Virus record (IMG/VR): IMGVR_UViG_3300021197_001481
Location: 22,817-86,816 of that record
Origin: a virus
Strand: one strand, 5' to 3'
Length of the DNA stretch: 64,000 bases
Position numbers and translations under genes: made by a program. Shown one piece after another: positions 1 to 64,000 of the stretch. Position 1 is the stretch's first letter. Every line of letters starts with the position of its first letter. The notes beneath the pieces were generated by a model. It was not told the origin of the DNA. It worked only from the letters and a program-made list of their open reading frames with translations, and ran no database searches.

Positions 1-1
1 C

Positions 2-742
2 ATTGGTGATGGTGGTATCGATCCACAACCCGGACTATTATACACAGAATCATCCAGCGAATACGAATTCTCTGGTGGTGATGTAACTTATTCAATTCCA
101 TCATATGCAATTGGATCAACCGCAACAACAACATTAGAACAACTCGACGGCGGGACTTCGGATCTTTATTTTATACTAACTACAGGAAACTCATCAGATC
201 GGGCACAAATTGCTGAAGGTATTAGTATGGATACTGCGACCGGAAGAGTGGGGATCAAATTTGGTCTTGAACTAGGTCACGGAATTAGTTTCAGTGATGG
301 TAGTTTCCTCGGTAGCAAAAATGAACTTGTTACAAGTGTTAATGGATCGACTGGAGATGTTCTTACCATACCATCACAGGTTGCCCACTTCACAATCCAA
401 GCGTCATCTTCTATATCCACAGGTGCAAAGACATCAGCACTTCACAGAATACCATATAGTGCAAAAATTACTGAGGTTGGAATTCGTACAGGAAATACAG
501 GAGGAATCACTGCATCCTTTAGAAAAATACGAAATCAAGATATTTTTGACATGACTGAAGGAATAAGTTACTCGTCATTGATCGGAACCGTAAATGCCGC
601 AACAGCAGCATTTGGTGCAACCGCAACAATCAACTCAATTGATGGTCCCAACTATGTTTATATGAACATTGATGCCATCGCCTCTGGCATAACACTCGTC
701 CAAGGGTTTATGGAATACATTAGATTTGATGGGAGCGACTAA
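2..742 (+). CDS. C-terminal part of a tail fibre/virion protein (5'-truncated)
   Basis: Frame is open from position 2 to TAA at 740-742; contains GISFSDGS and VTSVNGSTGDV motifs resembling those in the fibre at the window end. Confidence 0.6.
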   Translation: MGDGGIDPQPGLLYTESSSEYEFSGGDVTYSIPSYAIGSTATTTLEQLDGGTSDLYFILTTGNSSDRAQIAEGISMDTATGRVGIKFGLELGHGISFSDGSFLGSKNELVTSVNGSTGDVLTIPSQVAHFTIQASSSISTGAKTSALHRIPYSAKITEVGIRTGNTGGITASFRKIRNQDIFDMTEGISYSSLIGTVNAATAAFGATATINSIDGPNYVYMNIDAIASGITLVQGFMEYIRFDGSD

Positions 743-5304: not shown

Positions 5305-7794
5305 GTGCCTTTAAAAATATTCGGTGGGTCACTTCTCCTACCACTAAAAATTGATGGATATACCTTCGATAAACTCCCATATGCTCCGGGAGTTGATGAA
5401 AGATTTTCCACACAATTAAAAGATCAACTGCCGGATTTCGTACTAGAAAATTACGAAACATTTGTTCAATTTGTAGAGGCATATTATGAATGGTCCGAAC
5501 AACACGGAAACCCAAGAGCAGAGGGTGTTCGATTAAACACATACAATGATATTGATGAAACTCTTGATTTATTTTTGGAGTATTTCAGAAATACTTACAT
5601 TAAAGATTTTCCATACAAACTAGCAGACGGAGCAAACGAAAAAACTCTAATCAAAAATGTTGGTGATATGTATCGGTCAAAGGGGTCTAAGGCATCCTTT
5701 GATTTGTTGTTCAGGGTTTTATTTGATACATCAATTGAAATTAATTATCCCAAAGACAGAATTCTTAAACTATCAACTGCCACATTTGATGACAAACAAT
5801 TCATAAGAGTTGCACCTCTCATTTCAATTGATGAAGCAAAGACATTAGAAAATAGTCTTCTTGTACAAAAATCTAAATTCAAGAAAGAGATAACTGCGAC
5901 AGCATTAATTGATCGTGTAGATTATGTTCATGAAGGTGGATTTGACTTTTTCTCTCTTGCCGTACAAGATATATCTGGTACGTTCAATAAAGATACTTTT
6001 GTTGATGTTGTTACATCTGGAACCACATCTGCTGCATATTCTTTACCTGTATTACCAACACTACATTCTCTGAAAATAAATTCTGGAGGAACTGGGTATC
6101 AACTAGGAGATGAAGTAGATGTTTATGACTCATATGGAAATAGATTATTAAACGCAGCAATAAACAACATAGGTCCAATTGGGGATATTCGTGGTTTTGA
6201 GTTCAAACAAAATTTTGGTGTTTATAGATCAGATCAATCTATTGGTTTTTCTTTCGATACCTTTAGCGGAACCGGAGCAAGTCTCTCAGCACTTGGCGAA
6301 CAAGTCCTAACTGATGGACCAGACACATACAAAGACGACACCGGAAAAATTAGTGGTCGTTCCTTTATTCAAGATAGTTTCTTTTATCAAAACTATTCTT
6401 ATATTATTCGAGTCAACAAAAGTCTAGAACAATTTGCAGATGCAGTTCGTCGCCTAGTTCATCCATCGGGAACATTGATGTTTGCAGAATACATCAATGA
6501 AGTTTCGATGTCTGGTGATGCTGGAATAACCACAGATAACCTAACAAGATTCGTTCCTGTCATCGGTCACTATCTTCCACACACATTTGGAACAACTATT
6601 GATCCCCGAGGGTTTACTCTAGATGCGGTTCACACTGATTTTTATCCACTTGGATACAACGGTCAAGACGGCAACACGTTGGGGGAATTTATCGGGATTA
6701 CATTAGCAGCAGGAATAACAGGAACTCCTCACCTTTTTCCACATCTTGGACTTACACACGACCCACTAACAGTTCATAGTAACACGACCAACACGCCTTA
6801 TACCCTCAAACCTTTTAATAATGTAGAAACCAGAAGGACTATTATAAATGGTGCGTTAGGATCTACTGGATATATTGGACTAACAAGTGACTCTATTGGA
6901 GAACACGCAGGACTCATGGGATTTTTCCCAACGGGTTCCAGTAGAATAAGCACCATCGGTCCGGTGGGGGTTTTTGGCAGTGGAATTACTCACTACGGTG
7001 GTTACACATCTCCACAAGAAACCAGTCTTTCTGGTGGATTCTCTGGTGGTCAAATTGTCCAAATCGTCGGGACCGACTCCGCAACAGCAGACTACTGGAT
7101 TGTGTATCGTCACCCTACTCACTTAGGACTAGAGGGATTGGGAACAACTGGTACAAGGGAAGTTGTTCGTATTCCAATGCAACCAGTACAAGCAGGCGGG
7201 CAGAACATAGCAACAATTGCACCAGATTCTAGCGGTTATAATTTTGAAGAAACAACTGGGATTACAATAAACGGAACACCATACAGTATTGGAGAAATAG
7301 TAACACAGACAAGACCAAGAGAACCAATTGCCATAGGAAGAGTGATTAAATTTGATCCATCTGCATTTGGTAATCAGGGATCTGTTGCAGACGGCATCGC
7401 ACCATCCGATCCACTGTATAATCTCGATATTGATATACTTGAAGTTGAGGTTTTAAATGGTAAGTTTACCACGGGACTCATATCAGGAGATCTCAATAAG
7501 GATGGCAAGGTCGATGGACTTGATCTTTCATTATTACTTTCTAATTTTGGTCTAACCGGTGAGGGAGATTTAAACGAAGATGGAATTGTTGATGGCGGAG
7601 ATCTCGCTGGTCTTCTCGCATCTTGGGATCAACTTCCGAAACCAATCATAGGTGAGACTTCTGGAGGATCTAGACTAGTTGATTCTTCGTTTAATAACAA
7701 CATATATACTAGTATAACTCACGATACAAGTTGGATGGATATACCAATCAGCGTTATGGTAAATGATATCCAGTATAGTAACTTAACAAACTGA
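5305..7794 (+). CDS. gp7: Baseplate wedge initiator gp7-like, with G-x-T-rich insert and dockerin-like repeat
   Basis: QLPDFV..YETFVQFVEAYYEW, YRSKGS..SFDLLFR, IQDSFFYQNYSY, LVHPSG motifs; GTG start with GGAG SD. Confidence 0.8.
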   Translation: MPLKIFGGSLLLPLKIDGYTFDKLPYAPGVDERFSTQLKDQLPDFVLENYETFVQFVEAYYEWSEQHGNPRAEGVRLNTYNDIDETLDLFLEYFRNTYIKDFPYKLADGANEKTLIKNVGDMYRSKGSKASFDLLFRVLFDTSIEINYPKDRILKLSTATFDDKQFIRVAPLISIDEAKTLENSLLVQKSKFKKEITATALIDRVDYVHEGGFDFFSLAVQDISGTFNKDTFVDVVTSGTTSAAYSLPVLPTLHSLKINSGGTGYQLGDEVDVYDSYGNRLLNAAINNIGPIGDIRGFEFKQNFGVYRSDQSIGFSFDTFSGTGASLSALGEQVLTDGPDTYKDDTGKISGRSFIQDSFFYQNYSYIIRVNKSLEQFADAVRRLVHPSGTLMFAEYINEVSMSGDAGITTDNLTRFVPVIGHYLPHTFGTTIDPRGFTLDAVHTDFYPLGYNGQDGNTLGEFIGITLAAGITGTPHLFPHLGLTHDPLTVHSNTTNTPYTLKPFNNVETRRTIINGALGSTGYIGLTSDSIGEHAGLMGFFPTGSSRISTIGPVGVFGSGITHYGGYTSPQETSLSGGFSGGQIVQIVGTDSATADYWIVYRHPTHLGLEGLGTTGTREVVRIPMQPVQAGGQNIATIAPDSSGYNFEETTGITINGTPYSIGEIVTQTRPREPIAIGRVIKFDPSAFGNQGSVADGIAPSDPLYNLDIDILEVEVLNGKFTTGLISGDLNKDGKVDGLDLSLLLSNFGLTGEGDLNEDGIVDGGDLAGLLASWDQLPKPIIGETSGGSRLVDSSFNNNIYTSITHDTSWMDIPISVMVNDIQYSNLTN

Positions 7795-49546: not shown

Positions 49547-50332
49547 ATGACGATACTCAGTTTTAACAATACAGGACAAAACAGTCTTGGGTGGAGACTT
49601 GGAAATCAGATGTTCCAGTATGCAAGTCTTCTCGGTATTGCAACAAAGAATGAATTGACTCCCTACTTTAATATTACAGACACATATTTGGGTGACTGTT
49701 TTAAACTTGGTGGTGTGGTTAACAAAGTTCAAGAAGAAGAACATTATAATATTTTTGATGGTAATCCCTACTTCAACCCCGGACTATTTAATTTAGACAA
49801 CAATTTAAACTTTGATTTAAATGGATATCTTCAAACAGAAAAGTATTTCTCACACTGCGAAACACAGGTTAAAAAAGAGTTTCAGTTTAAAGATGACATA
49901 GAGGATCGAGCAAAAAAGTTTCTACCAGAAGGTCAACTCGTATCCTTACATGTGAGACGAGGGGACTACCTAAACAAACCAGACTATCATACAAACTTAC
50001 AAATTGCATATTATGAAAGTGCAATGGAAAAGTTTAAAGACCATAGTCCTATTATATTTTCTGATGATATTGATTGGTGTAGAGAAAATTTATCTCACAT
50101 ATCAAAAGAAGTGCATTTTTCGGACAACCCACCTGAAGATGGAAACACTGGTGTATATGATGATCTTTGTATGATGACCATGTGTGATGGACATATTATT
50201 GCTAATAGCAGTTTTAGTTGGTGGGGTGCTTATCTTGGAGGTGGGACTACTGTTGCTCCTGTACATTGGAATGGTCCTGATGCTCCTCAGAATTTTCAAG
50301 ATATCTATCTTAAGGAGTGGATTCTTTTATGA
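49547..50332 (+). CDS. Second GT11 alpha-1,2-fucosyl/colitosyltransferase
   Basis: RLGNQMFQYA, GYLQTEKYF, HVRRGDY, IANSSFSWWGAYL. Confidence 0.93.
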   Translation: MTILSFNNTGQNSLGWRLGNQMFQYASLLGIATKNELTPYFNITDTYLGDCFKLGGVVNKVQEEEHYNIFDGNPYFNPGLFNLDNNLNFDLNGYLQTEKYFSHCETQVKKEFQFKDDIEDRAKKFLPEGQLVSLHVRRGDYLNKPDYHTNLQIAYYESAMEKFKDHSPIIFSDDIDWCRENLSHISKEVHFSDNPPEDGNTGVYDDLCMMTMCDGHIIANSSFSWWGAYLGGGTTVAPVHWNGPDAPQNFQDIYLKEWILL

Positions 50333-51237
50333 TTGATTCAGATAAAATTTTAGTAACAGGCGGTGGTGGTCTGGTTGGTTCTTGTGTGACAGGAACCCAC
50401 AAACCTCGATCAAGTGAAGTTGATCTCATGAATTTCAATGAGATCGATTCATACATTCGTGACAATAATATTGATTATGTTGTTCACTGTGCAGCAAGAG
50501 TCGGTGGTGTCAAAGAAAACTCTGAGAAACTAGGAGAGTTCTTTTATCAAAATATACAGATGAACCTCAATCTACTTGAGGCATGTAGGGTGAATAATGT
50601 TAAGAAGGTAGTCTCAACACTAACCACTTGCATTTTCCCTGCCGAAGCAACATACCCTCTCACATATGATCAACTCCACAACGGAGAACCACATGAATCA
50701 AACTACGGTTATGCATATGCCAAGAGGATGTTGGAGATCAACTCTAGAGCATACCGAGATCAGTATGGGATGAACATTGTTAATATTATTCCATGTAACG
50801 TATACGGTCCAAGAGATAATTTCAATGTTCAGGAAGGACACGTTGTTCCGGGTTTGATTAACAAAGCATATCATGCAAAATGGAGTGGATCACCTCTCCA
50901 AGTATGGGGTGATGGTTCTCCGCTCAGAGAATTTTTGTACTCTGAGGATCTGGGGAAGATCATGGACTGGGTTCTACATAATTACAATGATCCAGAACCG
51001 TTGGTTGCCTCGCCAGACGAGGAAATCTCAATTGGACACGTTGCCGAAAAACTTAAGGAAATTTATGGGTTGGACGAACTTGTGTTCCAAGACGACATGC
51101 CTATGGGTCAACTAAGAAAACCATCAGACAATAGTAAACTAAAGAGTCTACTAGACTTCGAGTTTACATCGTTTGATGATGGACTAGAAAAAACCGTATC
51201 TTGGTTTGACAATAATTATGAAAGTGCTAGAAAATGA
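50329..51237 (+). CDS. GDP-L-fucose synthase-family epimerase/reductase (Fcl, or ColC here)
   Basis: VTGGGGLVGS, AARVGG, CIFP, SNYGYAYAKR, NVYGP.DNF, HVVPGLI, WGDGSPLREF. Confidence 0.88.
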   Translation: MIDSDKILVTGGGGLVGSCVTGTHKPRSSEVDLMNFNEIDSYIRDNNIDYVVHCAARVGGVKENSEKLGEFFYQNIQMNLNLLEACRVNNVKKVVSTLTTCIFPAEATYPLTYDQLHNGEPHESNYGYAYAKRMLEINSRAYRDQYGMNIVNIIPCNVYGPRDNFNVQEGHVVPGLINKAYHAKWSGSPLQVWGDGSPLREFLYSEDLGKIMDWVLHNYNDPEPLVASPDEEISIGHVAEKLKEIYGLDELVFQDDMPMGQLRKPSDNSKLKSLLDFEFTSFDDGLEKTVSWFDNNYESARK

Positions 51238-52373
51238 AAACTTGGAAACTAATGGACAAAGCAATCACTGCCGACCAGCGGGAAAGATTGTCAGATTTCA
51301 TACTAAATGAAGACAAGTTTTCTCAGGGAAAATATGTCCGAGAGTTTGAAGAAAAGTGGTCTGCATGGCAGGGTTGTAAGTATTCTGTCTTTGTTAACTC
51401 GGGATCATCTGCAAATTTTCTAGCAGTCCATGCTATGGAACGTCGAGGAGATGGACGAGATATGTGGGTCTCTCAAGCGTGTACATGGGCAACTACTGTC
51501 AGTCCAATCATGTTGTCTGGAAATAACCTACAGTTGTGTGACGTAAACATTCCCACACTGTCACCCAACATAGATTGTTTGAATCTTGTAATTGATAGAA
51601 TGAAACCAAACTATCTTTTTCTCGCAAACCTTCTAGGGTTTTCTGCACTAAGTGATGATCTACTACAGATCTGCGATGAAAATAAAATTACCCTCCTTGA
51701 AGATTGTTGTGAGTCTCATGGAGCAACATTTAAAGGAGAGAAGGTAGGTAATTTTGGAAAGGTTTCTACGTTCTCTTTCTTTTATGGTCATCATATGACA
51801 ACCATTGAAGGTGGTATGTGTTGCACAAACGACGAAGAAGTTTATGAAAAACTCCTCCTACTAAGATCACATGGACTACACCGAGAACTTCCAGAAACAT
51901 CAAGAGAGAGGTATGAAGATAAACTTGTAGATGAAAATTTTACTTTTCTTACTCCGGGTTTTAACGTAAGATCTACAGAACTAAATGCTTTGCTTGGAAT
52001 TATGCAATTGGAAAATCTAGATGAAAATATTCAAATCCGAAAAAACAACTTTGAGATTTTTGCCAGAGGACTAGATCCAAATCGCTTCTATGGTGATTTT
52101 GATATTGAAGAAAATTCTAGTTTCTGTTTTCCAGTTATTATGCGAAAAGAGACACCTGAAAATTTAAGAGAAGAACTCAGTAGGATGGGAGTGGAGACTC
52201 GACCAATCATTGCCGGGAATCTATTTCGTCATCCTTTCATGGATCGTGTCTCACAGTTTAGATTTGATGACAACGCAGAGATTGTTCACAATCATGGTTT
52301 CTATGTTGGTAACAACCACAACGTGAAACCAGAGGACGTTAGTTGGTTGGTTGATTTTTTGAATGAGGTTTGA
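51234..52373 (+). CDS. PLP-dependent GDP-4-keto-6-deoxymannose 3-dehydratase (ColD-like)
   Basis: VNSGSSAN, EDCCESHGA and SFFYGHHMTTIEGG, with His replacing the catalytic Lys of DegT aminotransferases. Confidence 0.8.
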   Translation: MKTWKLMDKAITADQRERLSDFILNEDKFSQGKYVREFEEKWSAWQGCKYSVFVNSGSSANFLAVHAMERRGDGRDMWVSQACTWATTVSPIMLSGNNLQLCDVNIPTLSPNIDCLNLVIDRMKPNYLFLANLLGFSALSDDLLQICDENKITLLEDCCESHGATFKGEKVGNFGKVSTFSFFYGHHMTTIEGGMCCTNDEEVYEKLLLLRSHGLHRELPETSRERYEDKLVDENFTFLTPGFNVRSTELNALLGIMQLENLDENIQIRKNNFEIFARGLDPNRFYGDFDIEENSSFCFPVIMRKETPENLREELSRMGVETRPIIAGNLFRHPFMDRVSQFRFDDNAEIVHNHGFYVGNNHNVKPEDVSWLVDFLNEV

Positions 52374-52375
52374 TC

Positions 52376-53062
52376 ATGAAAGTTTTAGTAATGAACATAG
52401 CGACAAACAAATACACACAGTTTGTCGATGATTTTTATAAGTCGTGTGAGCAGTTTTTCCTTCCCAATGTCGATGTGAGTTATCTTTTGTTTACGGATAA
52501 CATGGACTTTGATACTACAGTTAATGTGCCTTTTAGAAAGAGTTATGTTGAGCATAAACCATTTCCAGAACCAACACTAAAAAGATTTCATTACTTCCTA
52601 CAGGAACGAGAGTATATCGAGACGTTTGATTATGTCTTCTACTCTGATGTTGACATGAAATTTGTTCGACCGGTTGATCCCTCTGAAATTTGTTCAGATC
52701 TAACTCTCACAATACATCCTCTGATAAGAAAAAAAGAACAATTTACATACGAAACAAATCCTGAAAGCACTGCCTTTATCGACCCAACCAGAGAAGGTGA
52801 CCATTATTTTTGTGGTGGTTTCAACGGCGGATCTTCCAAAACATTTATGCAGATGTCAGATAATCTTTCTAATAACATTGACAAAGATGAAGAAAGAGAT
52901 ATACTTGCGGTGTGGCATGATGAAAGTCATATAAATCGCTATGCGATAAACAATCCCCCAACGAATATAGTTGATTGGTGTGTTACTGATTGGTATTGGG
53001 GTAGAACAGGACAAGGTAAACTAATTTGTTTATCTAAAGACCACGCGGAGATTAGATCATGA
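52376..53062 (+). CDS. GT6 alpha-1,3-GalNAc/Gal transferase (ABO-family)
   Basis: IATNKY, FTD, DVD, YETNP.STAFI, YFCGGFNGG, AVWHDESHINRY. Confidence 0.9.
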   Translation: MKVLVMNIATNKYTQFVDDFYKSCEQFFLPNVDVSYLLFTDNMDFDTTVNVPFRKSYVEHKPFPEPTLKRFHYFLQEREYIETFDYVFYSDVDMKFVRPVDPSEICSDLTLTIHPLIRKKEQFTYETNPESTAFIDPTREGDHYFCGGFNGGSSKTFMQMSDNLSNNIDKDEERDILAVWHDESHINRYAINNPPTNIVDWCVTDWYWGRTGQGKLICLSKDHAEIRS

Positions 53063-53676
53063 AATTAAATTTAACAGAATTGCCAGTTGTTTATATTAAC
53101 CTCGACAGAGACTCTGAAAAAAGACAGAGTATGGAAAAGATTTTTGATGAACACGGATTCAAAAACGTCCATAGATCTCCGGGGGTAATTGTTCCAAATG
53201 AACATGTATGCGTCGGCATATCTCACGCCTTTAGAGATGCGTTTGAGTTGGCGTTCTCCGTCAGTGATGGAGGTCCATTCTTGATGTTTGAGGATGATTT
53301 GGTTACAAGACCTTCTTTCAGAACAGAAATTGATATCCCGGATGATTATGACGCATGTTATCTTGGGATTTCTACATGGGCAAGAGTTAATGGAATAAGC
53401 GGTCCTTATTTACGGGGTGCCGATCTTCCCGACCGGTCTGACTTGATTCGTATCTATAATATGCTATCAGGACACGCTATACTTTATAGTGGAAATGAAT
53501 ATTCAAAAGTTATTCATGCTAAGATGACGAAAGCAATACAAGATAAAACATATCAAGACATTGAGTTTGCCGAAACTATGGGCAACTATAATGTTTATGC
53601 GTTCACTGATCCCTTTTTCTATCAATCGAGCAGCGAGAACGTGACTAATCTCACACTAAGTAAAAGCACAGTATGA
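53059..53676 (+). CDS. Glycosyltransferase, GT25-like
   Basis: YINLD...KR, G...A, FEDD, YLG, MLSGHAILY; paralogue-like to 48048..48710. Confidence 0.65.
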   Translation: MKLNLTELPVVYINLDRDSEKRQSMEKIFDEHGFKNVHRSPGVIVPNEHVCVGISHAFRDAFELAFSVSDGGPFLMFEDDLVTRPSFRTEIDIPDDYDACYLGISTWARVNGISGPYLRGADLPDRSDLIRIYNMLSGHAILYSGNEYSKVIHAKMTKAIQDKTYQDIEFAETMGNYNVYAFTDPFFYQSSSENVTNLTLSKSTV

Positions 53677-54503
53677 TAGGTATATTTCACGCAGGACAAT
53701 TAAATAATAATGGTCCCGGCAAAGTAGCAACTAATCTAATCAAGGGTCTAAAAAGACTTGGACACACGGTAGTAGAAAACCAAGAGGGCGATTATACCGG
53801 TTGTCTTGCATCATGGTCCCCCCGATTCAAGGATCTACCGAAAAAAACTTTGGTTGGACCAAATTTAGTTGTGCTTCCTACAGATGACCCTGAAATTTGG
53901 AGTTTGTTTAATAACTTAATTGTTCCATGTGATTGGGTTAAGAACTATTTTAACCACTTTCCGCTGACAAGAAATACAAACCTTCATATCTGGCCAGTTG
54001 GAATTGACACTGATCATTTTTGTCCTCATGGAGAAAAAGATGTAGACTGTTGCATTTATTTTAAAAATGGATCTGTAGACACAAGAAATGAACTTATTCA
54101 GATACTACAAGAAAAGGGTATGAGTTACATAGAAGTAAACTATGGAAATTATACCGAAGAAGATTTTATACAGGCAACGAGACGATGTAGATTTTGTGTT
54201 ACAATAACATCTACGGAAAGTCAAGGAATCGCTTACCAAGAAATATTATCTATGGGTGTCCCTTGTTATGTTGTGGAACAACCTATTTGGGATCACCGTC
54301 CGGGGTTCTCTTTCCCTGCCACATCTGCCCCATACTTTGATGTACGGTGTGGGATTAAATGTTTGGACTTATCTTTCTTTGATAAGTTCATCACTGAACT
54401 TCCAACCTTTAAACCAAGAAACTATATACTAGAGAATCTTACACTAGAAAAGTGTGCGAGTGAATACGTTTCGTTATTGGAAATTAGTAATGCCGATTTT
54501 TAA
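53673..54503 (+). CDS. Putative GT-B glycosyltransferase
   Basis: GPGKV..NL, VP..WV, WPVGIDTD.F, ESQGIA.QE.LS.GVP resembling the GT4 E-x7-E motif. Confidence 0.6.
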   Translation: MIGIFHAGQLNNNGPGKVATNLIKGLKRLGHTVVENQEGDYTGCLASWSPRFKDLPKKTLVGPNLVVLPTDDPEIWSLFNNLIVPCDWVKNYFNHFPLTRNTNLHIWPVGIDTDHFCPHGEKDVDCCIYFKNGSVDTRNELIQILQEKGMSYIEVNYGNYTEEDFIQATRRCRFCVTITSTESQGIAYQEILSMGVPCYVVEQPIWDHRPGFSFPATSAPYFDVRCGIKCLDLSFFDKFITELPTFKPRNYILENLTLEKCASEYVSLLEISNADF

Positions 54504-55326
54504 ATGTCATGGTATAGATTGGGTTTCTCCTCCTGATTGGTTTTCGACCGACAGAGACATTGCTCTAGTGCAAAGAATTTCTGATTGGACTCCCGAGGAA
54601 AACTTCTTTAATGTTTTTCTGGATTCACATGAACCTAATTTTTTTCTAGAAACAAAGTCATCTGAAGTTTTAGAACGACATGAAGATTTTGATTTAATTG
54701 TAACTAGAAGACCAGAATTGTTGCATCTTCCAAATGCAATTAGGTTTTGCTATGGTACAACTTGGATCCGCGAAGAGGTCAGAGAAAAACTATCAAAGAA
54801 CAAATCACCAAAGGTTTCGTATACGATGACTACCAAGTATTGGGAGAGTGAATCGGGTGAAACGGCAGATGGATATCAATTACGATTTCAAATTCTAGAT
54901 ATGTGGTCAAACGTAGAATCATTATCTGCACTACCTATTGATTTTTACGAGAGCGAAAAGTTCCCGATGGGAATATTTCCTCTAAGTTTAGAGGGGGAAC
55001 ATGGAAGAGATGTATTAATGGAGTATATGTTTCACATCGCCGTGGAAAACTGTCGAACACCAAATTACTTTAGCGAAAAATTGATGGATTGTTTTATGTC
55101 AAAAACACTACCAATTTATTTTGGATGTCCAAACATATCTGAATATTTCGATACATCTGGCATGATCATCATCGACAATCTTAGTAATTTAAATGTGGTT
55201 CTGTCAAATCTAACAGTGGATGATTATGAAACAAGAAAAGAAGCGATTGACAGGAACTTTGAGTTAGCAAAACAATATGAAAAATTCCCTGACAGATTAT
55301 TCACCGAGATAGAGAAAAGAATTTAA
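54490..55326 (+). CDS. GT10-like alpha-1,3/4-fucosyltransferase
   Basis: YMFHIAVENC..PNYFSEKL.DCF...TLPIYFG matches the alpha-1,3-FucT motif. Confidence 0.78.
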   Translation: MPIFKCHGIDWVSPPDWFSTDRDIALVQRISDWTPEENFFNVFLDSHEPNFFLETKSSEVLERHEDFDLIVTRRPELLHLPNAIRFCYGTTWIREEVREKLSKNKSPKVSYTMTTKYWESESGETADGYQLRFQILDMWSNVESLSALPIDFYESEKFPMGIFPLSLEGEHGRDVLMEYMFHIAVENCRTPNYFSEKLMDCFMSKTLPIYFGCPNISEYFDTSGMIIIDNLSNLNVVLSNLTVDDYETRKEAIDRNFELAKQYEKFPDRLFTEIEKRI

Positions 55327-55328
55327 TT

Positions 55329-56021
55329 ATGACTAAACATTTGTTATTATGTTTTAGTTCGTTTCATGTAGATACTGATCCGAACAATAAACGAGAAGAA
55401 GAGTATGCCATTTGTTATGAACAACTTCTTAGAGTTTTACCAAGTGATTTTAATTGTAGGTTTATTGATAATACCACAAACAATATATCTGATATAAAAA
55501 ACGAAAGACTAAAAAATGTTCTTGCAGGAACTCCATCAATCTTGTATGATAACAACGTAGGAAAAACAAACAAAGGATTGGGTGAATTGGACATGTTGGT
55601 CCGAGCAAAGAAACTTCTAGACTTTTTGGATTATAAAACAATTAGTTACCACTCTGGACGTAAGATTGTAACCTGTCCATATGTCTTTGACAAAACCAGA
55701 GAAACTAAAAAAGATGCTATGTTGTCTAACCCCCCGATATATTCTCTAATGACAGGAACACCATATCCGATGGGAAAAAATCTTTACAATGATATGTTCT
55801 TTTCAATGGGAAGTGAAGTGATGTTACAGTATTGCGTATACTGTGAGACTATTCTTAAGAATGGATCTTCTGGGTTAGGTTCTGAGCAAATTTTATACAA
55901 TTTTATTAATGAAAACCAAATTGACTTTGAGTGGATTGAACATCTAGGATTTATTAGAAATGACTGGGAACTCTCGGGCAATGGATACACAAGACAAGAA
56001 GGAAATGCCCAGTGGATATAA
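55329..56021 (+). CDS. Hypothetical protein in the glycan island
   Basis: 230-aa ORF; NKGLGE and SGR motifs, possibly glycosyltransferase-like. Confidence 0.5.
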   Translation: MTKHLLLCFSSFHVDTDPNNKREEEYAICYEQLLRVLPSDFNCRFIDNTTNNISDIKNERLKNVLAGTPSILYDNNVGKTNKGLGELDMLVRAKKLLDFLDYKTISYHSGRKIVTCPYVFDKTRETKKDAMLSNPPIYSLMTGTPYPMGKNLYNDMFFSMGSEVMLQYCVYCETILKNGSSGLGSEQILYNFINENQIDFEWIEHLGFIRNDWELSGNGYTRQEGNAQWI

Positions 56022-57112
56022 GAAATGAAGTTTTACCTGTCTTGCGACCTGTTGGTGGTGTCGAAGAAATAAATGCCTTATCCGATGTAATAAACAGTGG
56101 GTGGTGGGGTAAAGGTCCAAAGGTAACCGAGTTTGAAAAGAAGTTTGCAGAGATGGTTGGTGCAAAGTATGCAGTTGCTGTTAGTAGCAACACTCATGGA
56201 TTGGATTTGGTTTTAAAGGCCAAAGGTATTGAACATGATGACGTTATCAGTCCAACAATGTCTTTTGCTACAACCGCTATTGCTCCCTTGTGGAACAACT
56301 GTACGTCTACTATTGTGGATGTTGAAAGAGATACACTTTGTATTGATCCAAAATCAGTCAAAGAAAACCTGTCTCCAAATACAAAAGCAATCATTGCAGT
56401 AAACATGGCGGGAGTTCCTGCCAAGATTGATGAGATTAGAAATTTTTATGATGGATTTATCATTGAAGATTGTGCCCATAGTTGTTATACTTATGGTGCA
56501 GGTTCTAAAGGAGATGTTGCAATTTGGTCTTTTCAAGCAGTAAAAACTATGCCCTGTGGTGATGGGGGAATGATAACAACTAATGATAAAGAACTATATG
56601 AAAAACTAGTTCCTATGTCTTGGATGGGAATTTCCAGTACACACGAAAGAACAAAGGGTGTAGATGGTAAACCCGGATACTCTTGGGATTATGATATTAA
56701 ACTACTTGGAACCAAATCATATATGATTGATATATCGGCGGCAATTTGTTTGGAACAAATGAAGAAACTTCCAGATGCTTTGGAAAGAAGACGATACATA
56801 CAAAAAACATATAACGAACAACTAAATGAAATATTAGAAATTCCCGTTTGGTCTGAAACAGTTCAACACTATGGAGCAAGAGTACATCTAAAAGAACACA
56901 GAAATAAACTTATGGATTACTTAGCAGATAAAAAGATACACACATCGGTACACTACAAACCCCTTCATCTACACACTTTATTAAAGGATGGTAAGAAATT
57001 ACCGGTAGCAGAAGAAGAGTGGCAAAAACTTATATCTTTGCCTTGTCATTCTGCGATGACACAAGAAGACATTGATTATGTAATTTACTGGGTAAAGGAA
57101 TATTTTAAATGA
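56012..57112 (+). CDS. DegT/DnrJ-family NDP-sugar aminotransferase
   Basis: GPKV.EFE..FA, IEDCAHS, SFQAVKTMPCGDGGM with catalytic Lys, SLPCH. Confidence 0.9.
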   Translation: MDIRNEVLPVLRPVGGVEEINALSDVINSGWWGKGPKVTEFEKKFAEMVGAKYAVAVSSNTHGLDLVLKAKGIEHDDVISPTMSFATTAIAPLWNNCTSTIVDVERDTLCIDPKSVKENLSPNTKAIIAVNMAGVPAKIDEIRNFYDGFIIEDCAHSCYTYGAGSKGDVAIWSFQAVKTMPCGDGGMITTNDKELYEKLVPMSWMGISSTHERTKGVDGKPGYSWDYDIKLLGTKSYMIDISAAICLEQMKKLPDALERRRYIQKTYNEQLNEILEIPVWSETVQHYGARVHLKEHRNKLMDYLADKKIHTSVHYKPLHLHTLLKDGKKLPVAEEEWQKLISLPCHSAMTQEDIDYVIYWVKEYFK

Positions 57113-57159
57113 AAGAAAAAGTAAAAATTGATGATCGATACGTATGGAGTCCTAAGTGA
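57109..57159 (+). CDS. 16-codon mini-ORF (MKEKVKIDDRYVWSPK)
   Basis: ATGA overlap with the upstream stop, GTGA overlap with the downstream start, AAGGA upstream. Confidence 0.35.
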   Translation: MKEKVKIDDRYVWSPK

Positions 57160-58010
57160 ACACACTTTATACAATTGAAGGGACTAAAAACAATGACCAG
57201 AATCCAATCTATAACTCATTGGACCATCCAGACTTTCAAGATAAACTGTCACAGTTCAAAGAAACCTTAGTTTCTTGTTTTTCTAATAAACAATCTAAAA
57301 CTTTTTATAAGTTTGGGGACGGTGACTATTATTTTCTTCGGGGTGAGGGAATTGGTAGTGCAACACCCGGAAGAAGAGCATTATCAAAAAAATATTCTGA
57401 TATTAAACACGAAGAGTTTGTGTCAGGCGTTCCCCTGAATGACTATATCGGAGTTGAAACTTACAACATACCACTATTTTCAAGTCTTTATCCAGATAGA
57501 CCGGCAGACTATTATGCCGAATATGGATATGGGTTGACTGCAAATAAATGGTTGACTGCCACATTTGGAGAATCTATTGGTGTCATTGGAGCAGGTCCAA
57601 AGATTCGACTCATTGAGGAACTCATACAAAATAAAGAGTATCAAGAGTATCTTGGTCTAGAGAAGTTTACCGACTACATTGAGATACCACAAAAATTTGC
57701 ATGTGATGATATCGATGAAACGGAAAGAATGGTAGGGGAGCAGTTGAGTAACTCATCATCTAAAATTTTTCTACTAGGGATTGGGCATGTAAAATCCGCT
57801 TTGCTGCATCGGTTGAAGAAATATACAAATGCTATTTTCTTGGATGTCGGCAGTGGCATCGATGCTTTGGCAGGAATAATAGATCACAATCGTCCTTACA
57901 TGGCAAACTGGACAAACTACAGAACTACTAATTTTGACTACAGTTCCTTAGATATTTTACAGTATGATATATGGAACACCCCACACAAGATGTTAAAGGA
58001 AAAGGATTGA
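57156..58010 (+). CDS. Putative GT-D fold (DUF1792-like) glycosyltransferase
   Basis: FYKFGDGD resembles the RFGDGE motif; C-terminal LLGIG...AIFLDVGS resembles LxxLG...AIDIGH. Confidence 0.5.
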   Translation: MNTLYTIEGTKNNDQNPIYNSLDHPDFQDKLSQFKETLVSCFSNKQSKTFYKFGDGDYYFLRGEGIGSATPGRRALSKKYSDIKHEEFVSGVPLNDYIGVETYNIPLFSSLYPDRPADYYAEYGYGLTANKWLTATFGESIGVIGAGPKIRLIEELIQNKEYQEYLGLEKFTDYIEIPQKFACDDIDETERMVGEQLSNSSSKIFLLGIGHVKSALLHRLKKYTNAIFLDVGSGIDALAGIIDHNRPYMANWTNYRTTNFDYSSLDILQYDIWNTPHKMLKEKD

Positions 58011-58012
58011 AT

Positions 58013-58759
58013 ATGAAAAAGATGAAGGGTATTATTTTAGCGGGTGGATCGGGCAGTAGATTACATCCACTCACCGTCGCAGTAAACAAACACCTTTTAC
58101 CCGTTGGAGATAAACCAATGGTCATGCGTTGTTTGGAAAAGTTAACAGAAGCAGGAATTACAGAAATTGCGATCGTTACAAATCCAGAGTATGTTAGTAA
58201 CTTTTCTGCACTCTTAAAAAGTGGTAGTGACTATGGATGTGATATAACATACAAAGTTCAAGATAAAGCAGGAGGCATCGCAGAAGCACTGGAGTTGTGT
58301 GAGAACTTCGTAGGGGGTGACAATTGTACCGTCTTGTTGGGCGACAACATTTTTGAAGAATCACTTGTCGAGCATGTAGAAACCTTTAACAAAGATTGCA
58401 AATTGTTTTTTAAACATGTTCCTGATGGTCATCGTTATGGTGTTGCCTGTTTCGAGGAGGGCGTTGGACTATATGAAATCCTAGAAAAACCCTCCGACGC
58501 TACCTCTGCTTTTGCCGCAGTCGGCATTTATATTTACAGCAGTGAAGTTTTTGATCTGATTAAAAAAGTTAAACCATCATATAGAGGTGAACGTGAAATT
58601 ACTAGCGTTAATAACATGTTCCTCCACAGTAAGTATAAATACACATATGACTTCCTTGATGGGTGGTGGACCGATGCAGGTACAATGGAAACATACATCA
58701 GAGCAAACGAACTGGTTCGTGCGGGACAATATGAAAGATCCAAAGAAATTTCATCTTAA
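58013..58759 (+). CDS. rmlA: Glucose-1-phosphate thymidylyltransferase
   Basis: GIILAGGSGSRLHPLT..NKHLLPV.DKPM, LGDNIF, RGE.EIT, WTDAGT. Confidence 0.9.
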   Translation: MKKMKGIILAGGSGSRLHPLTVAVNKHLLPVGDKPMVMRCLEKLTEAGITEIAIVTNPEYVSNFSALLKSGSDYGCDITYKVQDKAGGIAEALELCENFVGGDNCTVLLGDNIFEESLVEHVETFNKDCKLFFKHVPDGHRYGVACFEEGVGLYEILEKPSDATSAFAAVGIYIYSSEVFDLIKKVKPSYRGEREITSVNNMFLHSKYKYTYDFLDGWWTDAGTMETYIRANELVRAGQYERSKEISS

Positions 58760-59210
58760 CATATACGAGGATGAACGCGGGGCATTTTCAGAAATTTTTC
58801 GTGCTACATCTCATGACGTAAATTTTGTGCAAGATAACCTTTCCGTTTCAAAGTCAGGTGTCTTGCGTGGTCTTCACCACCAAACAATAAAACCTCAAGG
58901 GAAACTTGTTGTTGTTTTGGATGGAAACATACAGGACGTAATAGTTTCATTAAAAACTAAAAGTGTTTTTTCGTATGACCTGAAAAGAGGAGATTGCCTT
59001 TGGGTTCCGCCAAACTATCTTCATGGGTTCTTGTGTTTGACAGATAGTATGGTCATGTACAAATGCACCAATTATTATGACTCAGGATCAGAGATCTCTG
59101 TTGACGCTTTCGATTCTCACCTAGATATAGAGTGGAAGATTGATCGGAAAAATATTATTCGTTCAGAAAAAGATTCTTCTGCTCTTTTATATGATGAGGT
59201 TATATCGTGA
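58731..59210 (+). CDS. rmlC: dTDP-4-dehydrorhamnose 3,5-epimerase
   Basis: DERG.F.E, FVQDN.S.S..GVLRGLH.Q, QGKLV, HGF, YKC..YY, SEKD. Confidence 0.92.
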   Translation: MKDPKKFHLNIYEDERGAFSEIFRATSHDVNFVQDNLSVSKSGVLRGLHHQTIKPQGKLVVVLDGNIQDVIVSLKTKSVFSYDLKRGDCLWVPPNYLHGFLCLTDSMVMYKCTNYYDSGSEISVDAFDSHLDIEWKIDRKNIIRSEKDSSALLYDEVIS

Positions 59211-60139
59211 AAACAATAATGGTTACTGGATGTGCAGGATTTATCGGAGGACATGTGACAGAACGTCTACTGTCTGATGGGTATGATATACTCGGTGTTG
59301 ATTGTCTAACATATGCAGGAAACATGGACTTGATGGATAGACTACAAAACAATCACAAATTACATTTTACCTTCAACCAAAAAAGAATTGGTGAACTAAG
59401 TTCGTCTGATTTAGAACATGTAGACCTTGTGGTAAACCTTGCAGCAGAAACACATGTGGACAACTCAATAAAAAGTAGTGATCCTTTTGTGCAAACAAAT
59501 ATAGTGGAAACACACCATCTATTAGAAAAGTGTAGAGAAAGTAATACTCCACTATTACATTTTTCTACCGACGAGGTATATGGTGTAGTTTTAGATGGTT
59601 CATTCTGTGAAACAGATCCACTGAAACCCAAGAATCCATATTCAGCAACGAAAGCAGCGATTGATCATCTTATTACATCATATCAAAACACATATGGATT
59701 ACAATCAACTATCATAAGACCGTCAAATAACTTTGGTCCAAGGCAGAACGATGAAAAGTTCATACCAACAATTACAAGATCAATCAGGAATCAAAATAAA
59801 ATACCTGTGTATGGAGAAGGACAGCAAGTTAGAGAGTGGACATACGTCAAACATACTGCCGCCGCCGTATCATTTCTCTGTAATAAGTTATTACAGGGAG
59901 AATGCTTTGGAGAAATTTTTAACTTTGGTACATCAGTTGAAATGAAAAATGTTGACTTGGTTAAAAAGTTGTGTAAAATAATAGGAGTTAGTTTTGAAGA
60001 CTCCGTTGAGTTTGTGACCGACCGCCCCGGTCATGATTTCAGATACAGTGTGAACTGTAAAAAGATCTCGAATCTAGGGTTTATTGTCGAACCCAACATA
60101 AATAAAGAATTAGAAGAAACATTAGAGGAATTGAAATGA
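59207..60139 (+). CDS. rmlB: dTDP-glucose 4,6-dehydratase
   Basis: VTGCAGFIG, LTYAGN, AAETHVDNSI, STDEVYG, PYSATKA, DRPGHDFRY. Confidence 0.93.
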   Translation: MKTIMVTGCAGFIGGHVTERLLSDGYDILGVDCLTYAGNMDLMDRLQNNHKLHFTFNQKRIGELSSSDLEHVDLVVNLAAETHVDNSIKSSDPFVQTNIVETHHLLEKCRESNTPLLHFSTDEVYGVVLDGSFCETDPLKPKNPYSATKAAIDHLITSYQNTYGLQSTIIRPSNNFGPRQNDEKFIPTITRSIRNQNKIPVYGEGQQVREWTYVKHTAAAVSFLCNKLLQGECFGEIFNFGTSVEMKNVDLVKKLCKIIGVSFEDSVEFVTDRPGHDFRYSVNCKKISNLGFIVEPNINKELEETLEELK

Positions 60140-61518
60140 GCAGACCCACCGTTACACTATGCATGATCGTTAAAGATGAAGAACATATTATTCATGAGTG
60201 TTTGGATTCGATGAAACCATACGTTGATCGATATGATATCACCGACACGGGTTCGACCGATAGAACCAAAGAAATTATTAAAGAGTGGGGAGAAAAGAAT
60301 AACATTCCCGGAACTGTCTACGACGCTCCTTGGCGTGGGTTTGGTAAGTCTCGTACAGAATCTCTGAGAAACGCAGACAAGGGTGGTGCAGACTACTCTT
60401 GGGTAATTGATGCTGATGATAAAGTCGGAGGAAACTTTGTTTACCCTCCCCAGTTTGGGCAACACTGTGGGTATACTCTTAAGATTAATAGAGGAGACTT
60501 TGAGTGGTGGAGAAATCAAATCTTCAAGAACAATATGGGGTGGGAGTATGTTGGTGTAATTCACGAATATGCAAACTGCCCTAAACTTGAAGAAGAAGCA
60601 GCAGCAGGTCGAGGAACCGCCAGACTTGCAGGAGATTACTTCATCGATGCCCGAACAATGGGTAATAGAACAAAAGAATTTGATGTTCAATTAAAAGAGG
60701 GCGAGCAAGAAACTCCGGGACAAGAGCAGTGGAGAAAGAAGTATCTTGCAGATGCAGAAACTATTCTTGATTGTTTGACAAATCCCGAGAATGAAAACTA
60801 CGAACCAGATAATCTTAGATATTACTTCTACCTTGCACAATCATACTTTGACGGTGGTGACTTCAAGAGTGCGAAAGAGTGGTACGAGAAGCGAGCAGAG
60901 AAGGGTGGATGGGAAGAGGAGCAGTGGTACTCTGTTCTTCGTGTCGCAATGTGTATGACCAATATGGGTGAGAAGTGGCAAGACTCACAAGATGTATTCT
61001 TACAGGCATACAATCTTAGACATACCCGAGTAGAACCTTTATTCAATCTTGCCAGAATTCATCGATTAAATGGAAATCCTAAACTGGGATATCTTTTTGC
61101 TAAGATGGGATGTCAGATAACGCTTCCACCACAAGATGTTCTTTTTGTGGCAAAAGATGTATATGAATGGCAAATCTTCGATGAACTTGCATCCACTGCA
61201 TGGTATACCGGAGATATGCAAGCAGGTCTCCTAGCATCTAATAAACTTCTTAGCGAAAAGAAGTATCCAGAAGAACACCATGAACGTATTCTAAACAACT
61301 GGAAGCAGTATGTTGCTTGGCAAGAAGAGCAAGAAAAGCAACAAAAGGCAGCAGAAGCAGAACATACCAAGCAAAGAATCTTACATGAAGAAGCACAGCG
61401 TCAAGAAACAGAGAAAAGAAAACTCGAAACTAAGAATCGGGAACAACAAAAGAAGATAAATAAGAGGAGACAGAAGCAAAAAAATGCGAGCAAGTCTCGT
61501 AAAGCATCGAGGAGATGA
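60136..61518 (+). CDS. GT2 glycosyltransferase with TPR domain (protein O-glycosyltransferase type)
   Basis: LCMIVKDE, DTGSTD.T, W.GFG..R...L, IDADD, G.IHE, followed by TPR helices (YYFYLAQSYFD...A..WY) and a coiled-coil/basic tail. Confidence 0.88.
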   Translation: MSRPTVTLCMIVKDEEHIIHECLDSMKPYVDRYDITDTGSTDRTKEIIKEWGEKNNIPGTVYDAPWRGFGKSRTESLRNADKGGADYSWVIDADDKVGGNFVYPPQFGQHCGYTLKINRGDFEWWRNQIFKNNMGWEYVGVIHEYANCPKLEEEAAAGRGTARLAGDYFIDARTMGNRTKEFDVQLKEGEQETPGQEQWRKKYLADAETILDCLTNPENENYEPDNLRYYFYLAQSYFDGGDFKSAKEWYEKRAEKGGWEEEQWYSVLRVAMCMTNMGEKWQDSQDVFLQAYNLRHTRVEPLFNLARIHRLNGNPKLGYLFAKMGCQITLPPQDVLFVAKDVYEWQIFDELASTAWYTGDMQAGLLASNKLLSEKKYPEEHHERILNNWKQYVAWQEEQEKQQKAAEAEHTKQRILHEEAQRQETEKRKLETKNREQQKKINKRRQKQKNASKSRKASRR

Positions 61519-61521
61519 TAC

Positions 61522-61959
61522 ATGGCATCCGGTAGATATGACATAACCGCAGAACAAGGAGTTACTTTCAAACTCCACCTTCGTTATAGTGATTCTAATG
61601 ACACTTTTATCGATTTAGATCCTGACTTGGGGTGGACAGGAAGACTTCAGGTTCGTCGTTCCCCTGACGATCCGGATATTTTATTGCATGTTACAACCAA
61701 TGGTGTAACTGGTGGTGGAGTAACAGGGGAATTTGTTTCTGGTGCAGGAGTTGTCGGTTCTGGTGGTATCACCATGAACGCATCTGCCACGGGCGGCACT
61801 GGTTTAAGTGGAGGCGTTTTGATTGGTATTGATGCATCTAGCATGTCTAACGTCCCCAAAGGGAATCACTTCTATGATCTAGAAATTGTCAAAGATGGCA
61901 CTATTGTGACAAGACTTCTCAATGGTAGATTCAGTGTCGATAGGGAAATCACTAGATGA
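61522..61959 (+). CDS. Virion structural protein (BppU/baseplate-upper-like Ig fold)
   Basis: YDI..EQG.TF, LQVR, YDLEI......TRLL.G.F.V..EIT pattern with a Gly/Thr-rich insert. Confidence 0.6.
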   Translation: MASGRYDITAEQGVTFKLHLRYSDSNDTFIDLDPDLGWTGRLQVRRSPDDPDILLHVTTNGVTGGGVTGEFVSGAGVVGSGGITMNASATGGTGLSGGVLIGIDASSMSNVPKGNHFYDLEIVKDGTIVTRLLNGRFSVDREITR

Positions 61960-64000
61960 GTAACAAAATTACTATTACGGCGTTACCCGGTAACGTAACA
62001 CTTACCGATTCTGGCGTAAAGACCAACGTGATTCAAGTCGCACAGGGTGTCGTCGCCGGTGGTGGTGTTGGTCAGGATGGTTCACAAGGAGATCACGGTA
62101 CAACCGGAAACACAGGTGCAACTGGTGCAACTGGTGCTACTGGAAACACAGGTGCAACTGGTAACACTGGTAATGATGGTGGCAATACATTTGGTATTCC
62201 GGGTGGTTTTGGTTTCTTTACACGCTTCGATGGAACAACTGGAACAACTTTACCAGTCCCAGAGGGTAGTAATAATTATCCGGGAGCGTTTAAGTTTGCT
62301 TTTGGTCATGGATCAGGAACAGCAGGAACAGGAGATGTTCCGAATTGGCCGGACTCAGGTGCTTTTTACCCGCAAGAACTTTACATAAGTGAATATAGTT
62401 ATAATGGTGTGAAGGGTTCTCATATTCCCAACCTCATTACACTCTTGATGGGTGCATCCGGAGGGACTATCCAGTGGGGCAGTGCCGGTCAACAAGCAAC
62501 TGCTGTTGCAATTTGCAAACTGACACAAATGCTGCCATATGCTCGCGGAGAGGATTCGCCCTCAGCAAATAGAACTCCTGTTGAAGCATGGTTCATGGTG
62601 AAACCCGGATTAGATTATGCCAGTCAAGGTGCGGATGGAAGTGGGAATCATACAATTCCTATTCAGAGAATTGATGAAGCAGGTACTAGACCAGTATTCC
62701 CATATAATGATTCTGGTAGATCCGGTGGAACAGGACCAGTCCAAGATGGAGATGTATTCTATCTTAGTTTCCAACCAATCTTCGGTGTAGGGGGAGGCGG
62801 CAGCGAGAGTTCGGGTGGAGGCACTGCATATCAAGCAGGAGATGGACTCACGCTAGATGTTGCTGGTGGAACCTTTGGTATTGATCCAACTGCAATCATT
62901 AATGTCGCTGGTGTAACTGGTAATGATTCTGCGATGGAATTCAGAAAGATCTCTGCATTCCCGTCCGACCTCACCGAACTTGCGTTAGTAGTCGATGGTG
63001 ATGACAAGTTGCGGATTCGTGATAATAAGTACCAGATAGATACCAAAGTCATCATCGACAACGGACTTCTCGAAGTCAAGGGCGGTGCGAGTATAACCGG
63101 TGGATTACTTCTTCAGGGATCATCCCCCGGATTAACTGTACAATCTTCTAATATCTTTGAAACAGTTCTTCATGCCAACGCAGGAATTTCTACTGATAAG
63201 GGAATTACTTTCTCTGATGGAACTCATCAGTTGACTGCTCCCGCTACAGTATCGCCTGCATTCCTTTCTGGCGGCGAAGGCGTAACTGGTATAACTCAAT
63301 ATAGAGCAACCGGTGGTGTTGTTCTAGACAACGCTGGCGGAACATTCTCACTCGATGGTGAGTATGATGCTAACTTTACATCATTAACAACTACTTTAAC
63401 AGTGAAATCCAACTCAGTCCTTGCTGCTGCCGGTGGTATCTCTGCGGACAAGGGAATTACCTTCCCCGATGGTACTCATCAGACGACTGCTCCAAACGTG
63501 GTTAGTCCAGCAGGAGCAGGAAACTTTTCTGCTACCGTCCCGTACACATATACTGCTCCTACGACCACTCAAATTGCTAATGCAGATGGTGCATTTATAT
63601 ACAATAGTAATAATGTTCTATCGATATTCAAGCAAGGCAGTAATGGTAGTAGTGAAGATCTTTCTGCGACGTTTCAGGATATTGTAGATACAGGTTCAAG
63701 TGGAAAAATTGGTATACGATTTGGTGCCTCAAACGAAGAACGGTTTTTCTTTTTCTCTGGTGGGAATCCGACCTTCGCCTCGAATAGATTTAATTTCACT
63801 GCCACGGATCAGGTTCCGGGTTCTACTCTTGGGGATGGTAAGGCAGTTGAGTTGCGAGTTTATGTTGATAACCCAACAACAGCAGCAACCACTCACTTCC
63901 GCTTCCCAGACGGAACAAATGCTACCAGTATTGTTACAAGTTTCAATGGTACTACTGGTGCCGTCGAAGGTGTGGCAAGTGTAAACGGTGCGACTGGTGC
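61956..64000 (+). CDS. Collagen-like tail fibre protein (3'-truncated)
   Basis: ATGA-coupled start MSNKITIT...; G-X-Y repeat, GITF.DGT repeats and VTSFNGTTGAV/VASVNGATGA at the window end are in the same frame; missing from the ORF track, consistent with no stop in the window. Confidence 0.8.
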   Translation, partial: MSNKITITALPGNVTLTDSGVKTNVIQVAQGVVAGGGVGQDGSQGDHGTTGNTGATGATGATGNTGATGNTGNDGGNTFGIPGGFGFFTRFDGTTGTTLPVPEGSNNYPGAFKFAFGHGSGTAGTGDVPNWPDSGAFYPQELYISEYSYNGVKGSHIPNLITLLMGASGGTIQWGSAGQQATAVAICKLTQMLPYARGEDSPSANRTPVEAWFMVKPGLDYASQGADGSGNHTIPIQRIDEAGTRPVFPYNDSGRSGGTGPVQDGDVFYLSFQPIFGVGGGGSESSGGGTAYQAGDGLTLDVAGGTFGIDPTAIINVAGVTGNDSAMEFRKISAFPSDLTELALVVDGDDKLRIRDNKYQIDTKVIIDNGLLEVKGGASITGGLLLQGSSPGLTVQSSNIFETVLHANAGISTDKGITFSDGTHQLTAPATVSPAFLSGGEGVTGITQYRATGGVVLDNAGGTFSLDGEYDANFTSLTTTLTVKSNSVLAAAGGISADKGITFPDGTHQTTAPNVVSPAGAGNFSATVPYTYTAPTTTQIANADGAFIYNSNNVLSIFKQGSNGSSEDLSATFQDIVDTGSSGKIGIRFGASNEERFFFFSGGNPTFASNRFNFTATDQVPGSTLGDGKAVELRVYVDNPTTAATTHFRFPDGTNATSIVTSFNGTTGAVEGVASVNGATG
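62070..62177 (+). repeat. Collagen-like repeat, 12 Gly-X-Y triplets, 8 of them with Thr at Y
   Basis: GQD GSQ GDH GTT GNT GAT GAT GAT GNT GAT GNT GND; 9-nt ggtgcaact-type units. Confidence 0.9.
63172..63495 (+). repeat. Duplicated ~24-aa module in the fibre
   Basis: AGISTDKGITFSDGTHQLTAP (~63180-63243) and GGISADKGITFPDGTHQTTAP (~63432-63495). Confidence 0.75.

Follow-up and report, generated by a model that had tools for sequence, protein, structure and literature searches.

Near-complete absence of RGCY and many other palindromic words from a genome fragment of an uncultured marine T4-like phage, consistent with selection by host restriction enzymes

The stretch of DNA considered here, hereafter the window, comprises 64,000 nucleotides (positions 22817-86816 of the single 86,816-bp virus record IMGVR_UViG_3300021197_001481) and is almost free of the degenerate tetranucleotide RGCY, that is, of AGCT, AGCC, GGCT and GGCC, which together would be expected every 64 bp in DNA of even composition. 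CCWGG, most of GCGC and many palindromic hexamers are missing as well. The depletion is achieved through context-dependent choice of synonymous codons, and probably it reflects long-running selection on these codons against many Type II-like restriction endonucleases of the host population. This is a known kind of phenomenon, restriction-site avoidance, in an unusually extreme form: it stands out by the removal of a word as short as RGCY, by the loss of at least a dozen other palindromes, and by its inheritance through a large clade.

1-64000, not strand-specific: purge of RGCY (5 copies), CCWGG (0), many palindromic hexamers, and GCGC outside GGCGCA (0); the purge spans the whole 86.8-kb contig

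RGCY depletion and codon choice

Near-total avoidance of RGCY had been claimed in a preliminary description of the window, which also proposed a comparison of observed with Markov-expected tetramer counts. In the full count, AGCT, AGCC and GGCT have no copies and GGCC has five, against RGCY expectations of 617 from base composition (order 0), 438 from a first-order and 228 from a second-order Markov model, and no other tetramer among the 256 is as strongly depleted in the window as these four. The claim is thus confirmed, as is the accompanying remark that the sister words are common: RGCR, YGCY and YGCR words occur at 0.6-1.3 of expectation, and the control tetramers AGCA (348 copies), GGCA (182), TGCT (247) and TGCC (154) are not depleted. 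Contig-wide, RGCY is represented by the same five sites, with 874 expected (order 0). When the 87 open reading frames (ORFs) of the contig were re-coded at random with their own codon usage in 200 runs, RGCY was found 528.4 ± 18.9 times and never fewer than 478 times.

The recoding can be read from individual codons. Alanine codons that follow a purine-ending codon are GCA (439) or GCG (93), with a single GCC and no GCT, whereas after a pyrimidine-ending codon all four are in use (GCT 345, GCC 206, GCA 440, GCG 96). The base following AGC (149 codons) and GGC (211 codons) is a purine in every case. As described earlier, Trp-Leu pairs are restricted to TTA or TTG (17 of 17) although CTN codons make up 68% of all leucine codons. 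The rule that Met-Ala starts use GCA or GCG likewise holds in every pair, of which the contig has 16; the window has 11 by the present ORF calls rather than the 12 first reported.

The five residual sites are all GGCC, and each reads TGGCC on one strand:

19566-19569, plus strand: GGCC in TGG CCA (Trp-Pro), where no recoding is possible; ORF 19181-19639
26282-26285, plus strand: GGCC in TGG CCA (Trp-Pro); ORF 25870-26433
53992-53995, plus strand: GGCC in TGG CCA (Trp-Pro); ORF 53673-54503, in the glycan island
56218-56221, plus strand: GGCC in AAG GCC (Lys-Ala), the only recodable RGCY in the contig; gene for a DegT-type aminotransferase, 56012-57112, with TGGCC on the lower strand
62347-62350, plus strand: GGCC in TGG CCG (Trp-Pro); ORF 61956-63998, which runs past the contig end

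Four of them had been recognized before and attributed to TGG-CCN, correctly in each case; they presumably persist because Trp-Pro has no synonymous alternative. The further statement that exceptions occur solely where Trp-Pro forces them applies to these four but not to the site at 56218, which had been overlooked. The sites are spaced 2.2-27.7 kb apart, and the Trp-Pro dipeptide itself is scarce, with 4 occurrences versus 10-11 expected from shuffling (P = 0.014).

48048-61959, plus strand: sugar/glycan gene island with glycosyltransferases, a DegT aminotransferase, a nucleotidyl transferase and an epimerase

This island follows the same rule, as had been noted, with 2 RGCY versus 124 expected, 0 CCWGG versus 11 and 0 GCGC versus 18; yet it holds the one recodable site.

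Other purged words

CCWGG has no copy in the contig, where base composition predicts 84 and the synonymous null 87.5 ± 7, while GGWCC is kept (74 versus 84 expected). CCSGG occurs in excess (94 versus 45 expected under a purge-aware null, z = 7), probably as a side effect, where Pro-Gly and similar pairs were recoded to avoid CCWGG.

GCGC has 16 copies where 69-141 are expected (69 ± 8 under the synonymous null). All 16 belong to one of the ten flank classes, GGCGCA/TGCGCC, which stands near its expected level (12.4), and the remaining nine classes, for which about 57 copies are expected, are empty. Ten of these sites lie in the window, mostly as GGC GCA (Gly-Ala):

1661, 3733, 10370, 12071, 13607, 21174, 24205, 27237, 31736 and 46697, not strand-specific: GCGC sites, all GGCGCA/TGCGCC

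In the related records G001 and G004 all surviving GCGC sites contain GGCGC, and the present contig additionally lacks RGCGCY. The GCGC purge is parsed best as HGCGCD, which is purged in G001 and G004 also, plus RGCGCY; it is not reducible to one motif.

Hexamers were tested against a null that respects the RGCY, CCWGG and GCGC purges, in classes with an expectation of at least 10. Zero copies were found for 10 of the 39 palindromic hexamers and for 3 of the 1839 non-palindromic classes (Fisher P = 1e-15). The empty palindromes, each expected 10-40 times, are AACGTT, AGTACT, CCATGG, CTCGAG, CTGCAG, GACGTC, GGTACC, GTCGAC, TACGTA and TTCGAA. The three empty non-palindromes, CACGTA, GACGCC and GAGCAC, fall within YACGTR, GRCGYC and GWGCWC, degenerate palindromes of which the contig likewise has no copy. 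Palindromes made up of A and T only and those containing GATC are undepleted. The purge is thus confined to palindromes and degenerate palindromes and covers at least 13 specificities.

Source and gene content

The record covers roughly half of the genome of a lytic, T4-like marine phage that is uncultured; CheckV gives a completeness of 46% for the contig. The window encodes proteins of T4 type, including baseplate wedge, portal, scaffold and major head proteins, the UvsW helicase and the gp46/47 nuclease pair, and further UvsY, a Dam-like methylase, endonuclease V, RNase H, the gp45 clamp, the gp44/62 loader and RegA. The late sigma factor gp55 is encoded in the contig, and the 22.8 kb preceding the window carry gp32, gp53, gp5 and other baseplate proteins, so that a core set of the T4-like (Kyanoviridae-like marine) group was found: gp23, gp20, gp6/7/8, UvsY, UvsW, gp55, gp46/47, gp45, gp44/62, regA and gp32. 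No tRNA genes were found when the window was scanned for them.

30898-32415, plus strand: gp23-like major head protein of T4 type, the marker in the search for relatives and for the tree

The closest capsids in GenBank are those of Pelagibacter phage HTVC008M and of Synechococcus and Prochlorococcus myoviruses, at only about 52% identity, and megablast of the DNA against a phage collection gave no match. Near-identical DNA is present in seawater and marine metagenomes (20 runs from 13 studies, each with part of the sequence), where one study had four runs with 98-99% of the sampled words, which may be the source of the sequence, and five further studies had runs with 44-62%. Ahead of the window, two proteins (contig positions 302-1372 and 1423-2451; L122) match the Pfam Dockerin_1 and EF-hand families (E ~1e-6).

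Spread of the purges among relatives

A search of IMG/VR with the capsid yielded at least 600 related stretches, of which the best 80 were kept; the resulting capsid tree has 84 rows, and AGCT is called at or near zero when it does not exceed 10% of expectation. The four closest relatives (L001, L004, L021 and L042, with capsids 72-84% identical) jointly contain 1 RGCY in 39 kb, versus about 392 expected. Full purge of RGCY has at least three origins on the tree (one in the five-member clade that includes the window, one in L016 and one in L070), and AGCT plus AGCC/GGCT have been dropped with retention of GGCC at least twice. The loss of AGCC/GGCT in addition to the other words identifies the motif as RGCY and not as AGCT plus GGCC. 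AGCT is at or near zero in 49 of the 84 rows, most of them in one large clade whose members tend to lack GGCC and CCWGG also, and other lineages have zero ACGT, CCGG, GATC, TCGA, CATG, GTAC or CGCG.

A near-complete relative, record G003 (IMGVR_UViG_3300042691_012617; L084-L092), is a T4-like genome of 168,426 bp (93% complete, 50.7% G+C) in which AGCT (0 observed, 658 expected), ACGT (0 of 658) and CCGG (0 of 693) are all absent and 16 palindromic hexamers are empty. Among the whole records, six are nearly or entirely free of AGCT, and in each of these between 7 and 16 palindromic hexamers have no copy; CTGCAG and GTGCAC are missing from every one of them, and GGTACC, TGCGCA, CTCGAG and GCATGC from five. 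In the 41 kb examined of the cultured SAR11 phage HTVC008M (L082, 54225-95478 of KC465899.1), TCGA occurs once versus 125 expected and CGCG not at all versus 30, and eight palindromic hexamers are empty. No hexamer purge was detected in the examined parts of S-CREM1 and C48C1, nor in record G009.

Metagenome contigs from four runs were also compared with positions 20001-40000, at 85% likeness: 2 of the 40 differences listed (there are 365 more) would create RGCY or CCWGG, where 4.9% would do so by chance, and the best-supported ones lie in conserved stretches to which unpurged phages also map. Across the relatives, the purge is maintained through divergence, with a profile that differs by lineage.

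AGCT is in excess in a sister group of low G+C content, comprising G009 (L117-L121), L052, L058, L060, L064, L069, L074, L076 and L077. In G009 it occurs 556 times versus 310 expected, and positions 51397-52290 of this record match a C5 cytosine methylase. The gene psbA was not found in the five related records searched, the 93%-complete one included, which argues against cyanophages for that clade.

Methyltransferase genes

40512-41312, plus strand: Dam-like N6-adenine DNA methyltransferase of the D12 class; no other DNA methylase was found in the contig

The target of this enzyme is presumably GATC, a word that is not avoided in the contig (observed/expected 1.41). For cytosine methylases, neither PF00145 nor PF01555 was matched in six frames of the contig, which represents 46% of the genome.

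Several relatives encode a conserved protein of about 540 amino acids, 59-71% identical between records, that has a marginal C-terminal match to the N6_N4 methylase family and an SPPY motif:

G001 78743-80341; G004 33537-35165 (L099:13537-15165); G007 23283-24857; G008 80910-82544: methyltransferase-like gene of about 540 amino acids

In these records the gene overlaps the start of a homologue of window ORF 42808-43911. It is not at that place in the present contig, where the Dam-like, endonuclease V and epimerase genes stand, and G003 has no N6_N4 methylase match. The four carriers keep GGCC at 0.36-0.93 of expectation, which is in line with a rule of 'methylate or avoid', a lead drawn from few genomes.

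Host restriction and alternative explanations

A purge confined to palindromes, spread over many unrelated words and brought about by silent recoding is what selection against Type II cleavage predicts. In such a process each unmethylated site would be a cleavage target upon phage entry, and genomes without sites would survive whatever methylation the strain applies; the motif of the phage's own methylase, presumably GATC, would not be avoided. Since AGCC and GGCT are purged along with AGCT and GGCC, the RGCY purge would imply a CviJI-like specificity in the host population. The preliminary description had offered an RGCY-cutting defence of the host as one of two explanations. This fits the evidence, although the purge extends beyond RGCY to a total of 13 or more palindromic specificities, and with so many of them the pressure looks like that of the whole Type II repertoire of the host and not of one special enzyme.

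Several points weigh against this interpretation. Five GGCC sites are left that an RGCY cutter should still cleave, one of them recodable. Such sparse residual sites may be tolerated: enzymes that require two sites leave sparse sites uncut, EcoRII on T3/T7 DNA being an example. The GGCGCA exemption within the GCGC purge matches no single known specificity. We know of no bacterial RGCY endonuclease, and a capsid scan of prokaryote genomes gave only matches of 43-54%, the best at about 52-54%, in eight contigs of metagenome-assembled genomes (MAGs), so that any cognate enzyme is putative. The half of the genome that is missing may encode a nuclease or methylase of the phage. Finally, according to the part of the study drawn upon here, viral methylation motifs are rarely common to prokaryote genomes, although 5-methylcytosine (m5C) is invisible to the method used (PMC8919816).

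Among the alternatives, one holds that sites are avoided in order to escape methylation by host or foreign methylases, which would be followed by Type IV cutting in the next host. This explanation too predicts that words targeted by methylases, for the most part palindromes, would be lost, and methylated RGCY and CCWGG are described as common in marine viral DNA (PMC8919816, in part). No direct evidence for it was found, and the phage keeps a Dam-like methylase together with abundant GATC, which indicates that the phage tolerates methylation as such. Known Type IV enzymes, moreover, are loosely specific and would not demand the removal of every copy of 6-bp words. We regard this explanation as improbable.

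The second explanation in the preliminary description was an RGCY nuclease encoded by the phage itself, sparing its own DNA. It would take the form of a solitary enzyme without a methylase, encoded in the unsequenced 54% of the genome, with absence of sites from the phage's own DNA serving as self-protection while host or competitor DNA is shredded. The incompleteness of the contig leaves room for such a gene, and the absence of AGCT is inherited over a deep phage clade, as a vertically inherited phage gene predicts. There is also a viral precedent in the CviJI system, which is carried by chloroviruses (PMC3526282, in part).

The sequence available gave no support to this proposal. The search for endonucleases and methyltransferases that had been suggested for the genome was run on the contig and returned neither an RGCY endonuclease nor a cytosine methylase. 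PADLOC matched no Type II restriction enzyme model in any of the 87 contig ORFs; its yield consisted of the Dam-like methylase and of helicase, SbcC and Cas4 look-alikes only. PADLOC hits labelled as restriction endonuclease were rejected as such, being the helicase domain of UvsW, and the hits labelled as methyltransferase all correspond to the Dam-like gene. With Pfam or PHROGs, 63 ORFs provided no candidate for a sequence-specific nuclease that would explain the purge.

Two candidates were considered individually. A PD-(D/E)XK protein encoded ahead of the window (contig 6901-7566; L122) is a Cas4-like nuclease with homologues in G003, G006 and G009; it was rejected as the cause of the purge, as its homologues include that of G009, which keeps AGCT. 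The other candidate was the adjoining 3' neighbour of the methyltransferase-like gene in four relatives:

42808-43911, plus strand: conserved protein of 367 amino acids with no assigned function, phrog_11903; 53 environmental uncharacterised homologues, no Pfam family

Its confident structural model (predicted local distance difference test score, pLDDT, 88) consists of long helices and a small beta domain, and a Foldseek search of the PDB with this model gave no match at E <= 0.001. The fold is not nuclease-like, and the ORF was dropped as an endonuclease.

Evidence from the relatives points in the same direction. G003 lacks AGCT, ACGT and CCGG, and a scan of 150 of its 184 ORFs revealed no Type II restriction endonuclease or methyltransferase model among the 25 families listed out of 41. 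Gene families shared by AGCT-free records and absent elsewhere comprise only structural or unknown proteins, none nuclease-like, in a comparison where all records but one are fragments. Moreover, at least 13 unrelated palindromic specificities are too many for the nucleases of one phage. A phage-encoded RGCY nuclease is therefore quite unlikely. The same holds for a mixed explanation, to which we give little credence, in which the RGCY pressure came from a solitary CviJI-like nuclease of the lineage itself and the hexamer purges were separate, ordinary avoidance of host restriction.

An origin as a mutational by-product (deamination of methylated cytosine at the motifs) or as an assembly artefact is extremely improbable: methylated cytosine does turn into T over time, and other systems are known in which methylated words are depleted, but the kinds of change and the Trp-Pro exemption contradict such an origin, as the changes are not C-to-T (alanine GCY becomes GCR solely after purines, and AGC and GGC are kept, never followed by a pyrimidine) and the depletion is not partial but total, with exemption confined to places where the protein allows no recoding, while against an artefact stand the recovery of the sequence in runs of several studies and the same purge in independent contigs of relatives.

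Implications

If restriction by the host is the cause, the bacteria infected by this clade of abundant, uncultured marine T4-like phages probably have a set of Type II enzymes that is both rich and stable. This set would include an RGCY cutter, of a kind not known to us from prokaryotes; enzymes of the CviJI type are useful reagents. The purge profile of a virus would then be a negative imprint of the restriction repertoire of its host, and such profiles could be matched to the enzymes predicted in MAGs for the assignment of hosts to uncultured phages.

Comparison with known systems

The textbook cases of complete site loss concern one or two words only, namely GATC in staphylococcal phage K and GGCC in Bacillus phages. 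Passive anti-restriction by site avoidance is a known strategy of lytic phages, and according to the part of the survey used here, roughly one in ten genomes of prokaryotic viruses has completely eliminated Type II sites (Rusinov et al. 2018, PMC6286503). As in the phages surveyed there, palindromic Type II words are depleted or wholly lost within the coding sequence of a non-temperate double-stranded DNA phage, and the effect is specific to sites of orthodox Type II-like kind. Unlike those cases, the present phage has lost the degenerate tetramer RGCY near-completely, together with CCWGG, most of GCGC and at least ten hexamers. An earlier description of such a purge was not found in the literature searched, which was limited in coverage.

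RGCY is exactly the specificity of R.CviJI of chlorovirus IL-3A, which cuts this word (PMC3526282, in part), in agreement with what the preliminary description had stated; the likeness rests on the recognition word. The algal virus protects itself by M.CviJI methylation, whereas the present phage does so by the absence of sites, and the available 46% of its genome contains no cytosine methylase or restriction-like gene.

The closest parallel in habitat is provided by marine viral methylomes. In the portion of that study considered here, RGCY, as N4-methylcytosine (m4C), is the commonest methylated motif in marine viral genomes and occurs with CCWGG and GGWCC among Myoviridae-like viruses, and GCGC (m4C) and TGGCCA (m5C) are listed as motifs without matching REBASE methylases (Hiraoka et al. 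2022, PMC8919816). The present phage agrees with those viruses in habitat, in virus type and in two motifs out of three, RGCY and CCWGG; unlike them, it does not keep and methylate these sites but deletes them, and it retains GGWCC. The methylation of RGCY and CCWGG in marine viruses, which makes these words targets of the other anti-restriction strategy as well, suggests that the same words are attacked in this habitat. The methylation of these motifs by marine myoviruses would thereby find a natural answer, as words lethal enough that sister lineages delete them, and deletion would be the response of the lineage described here.

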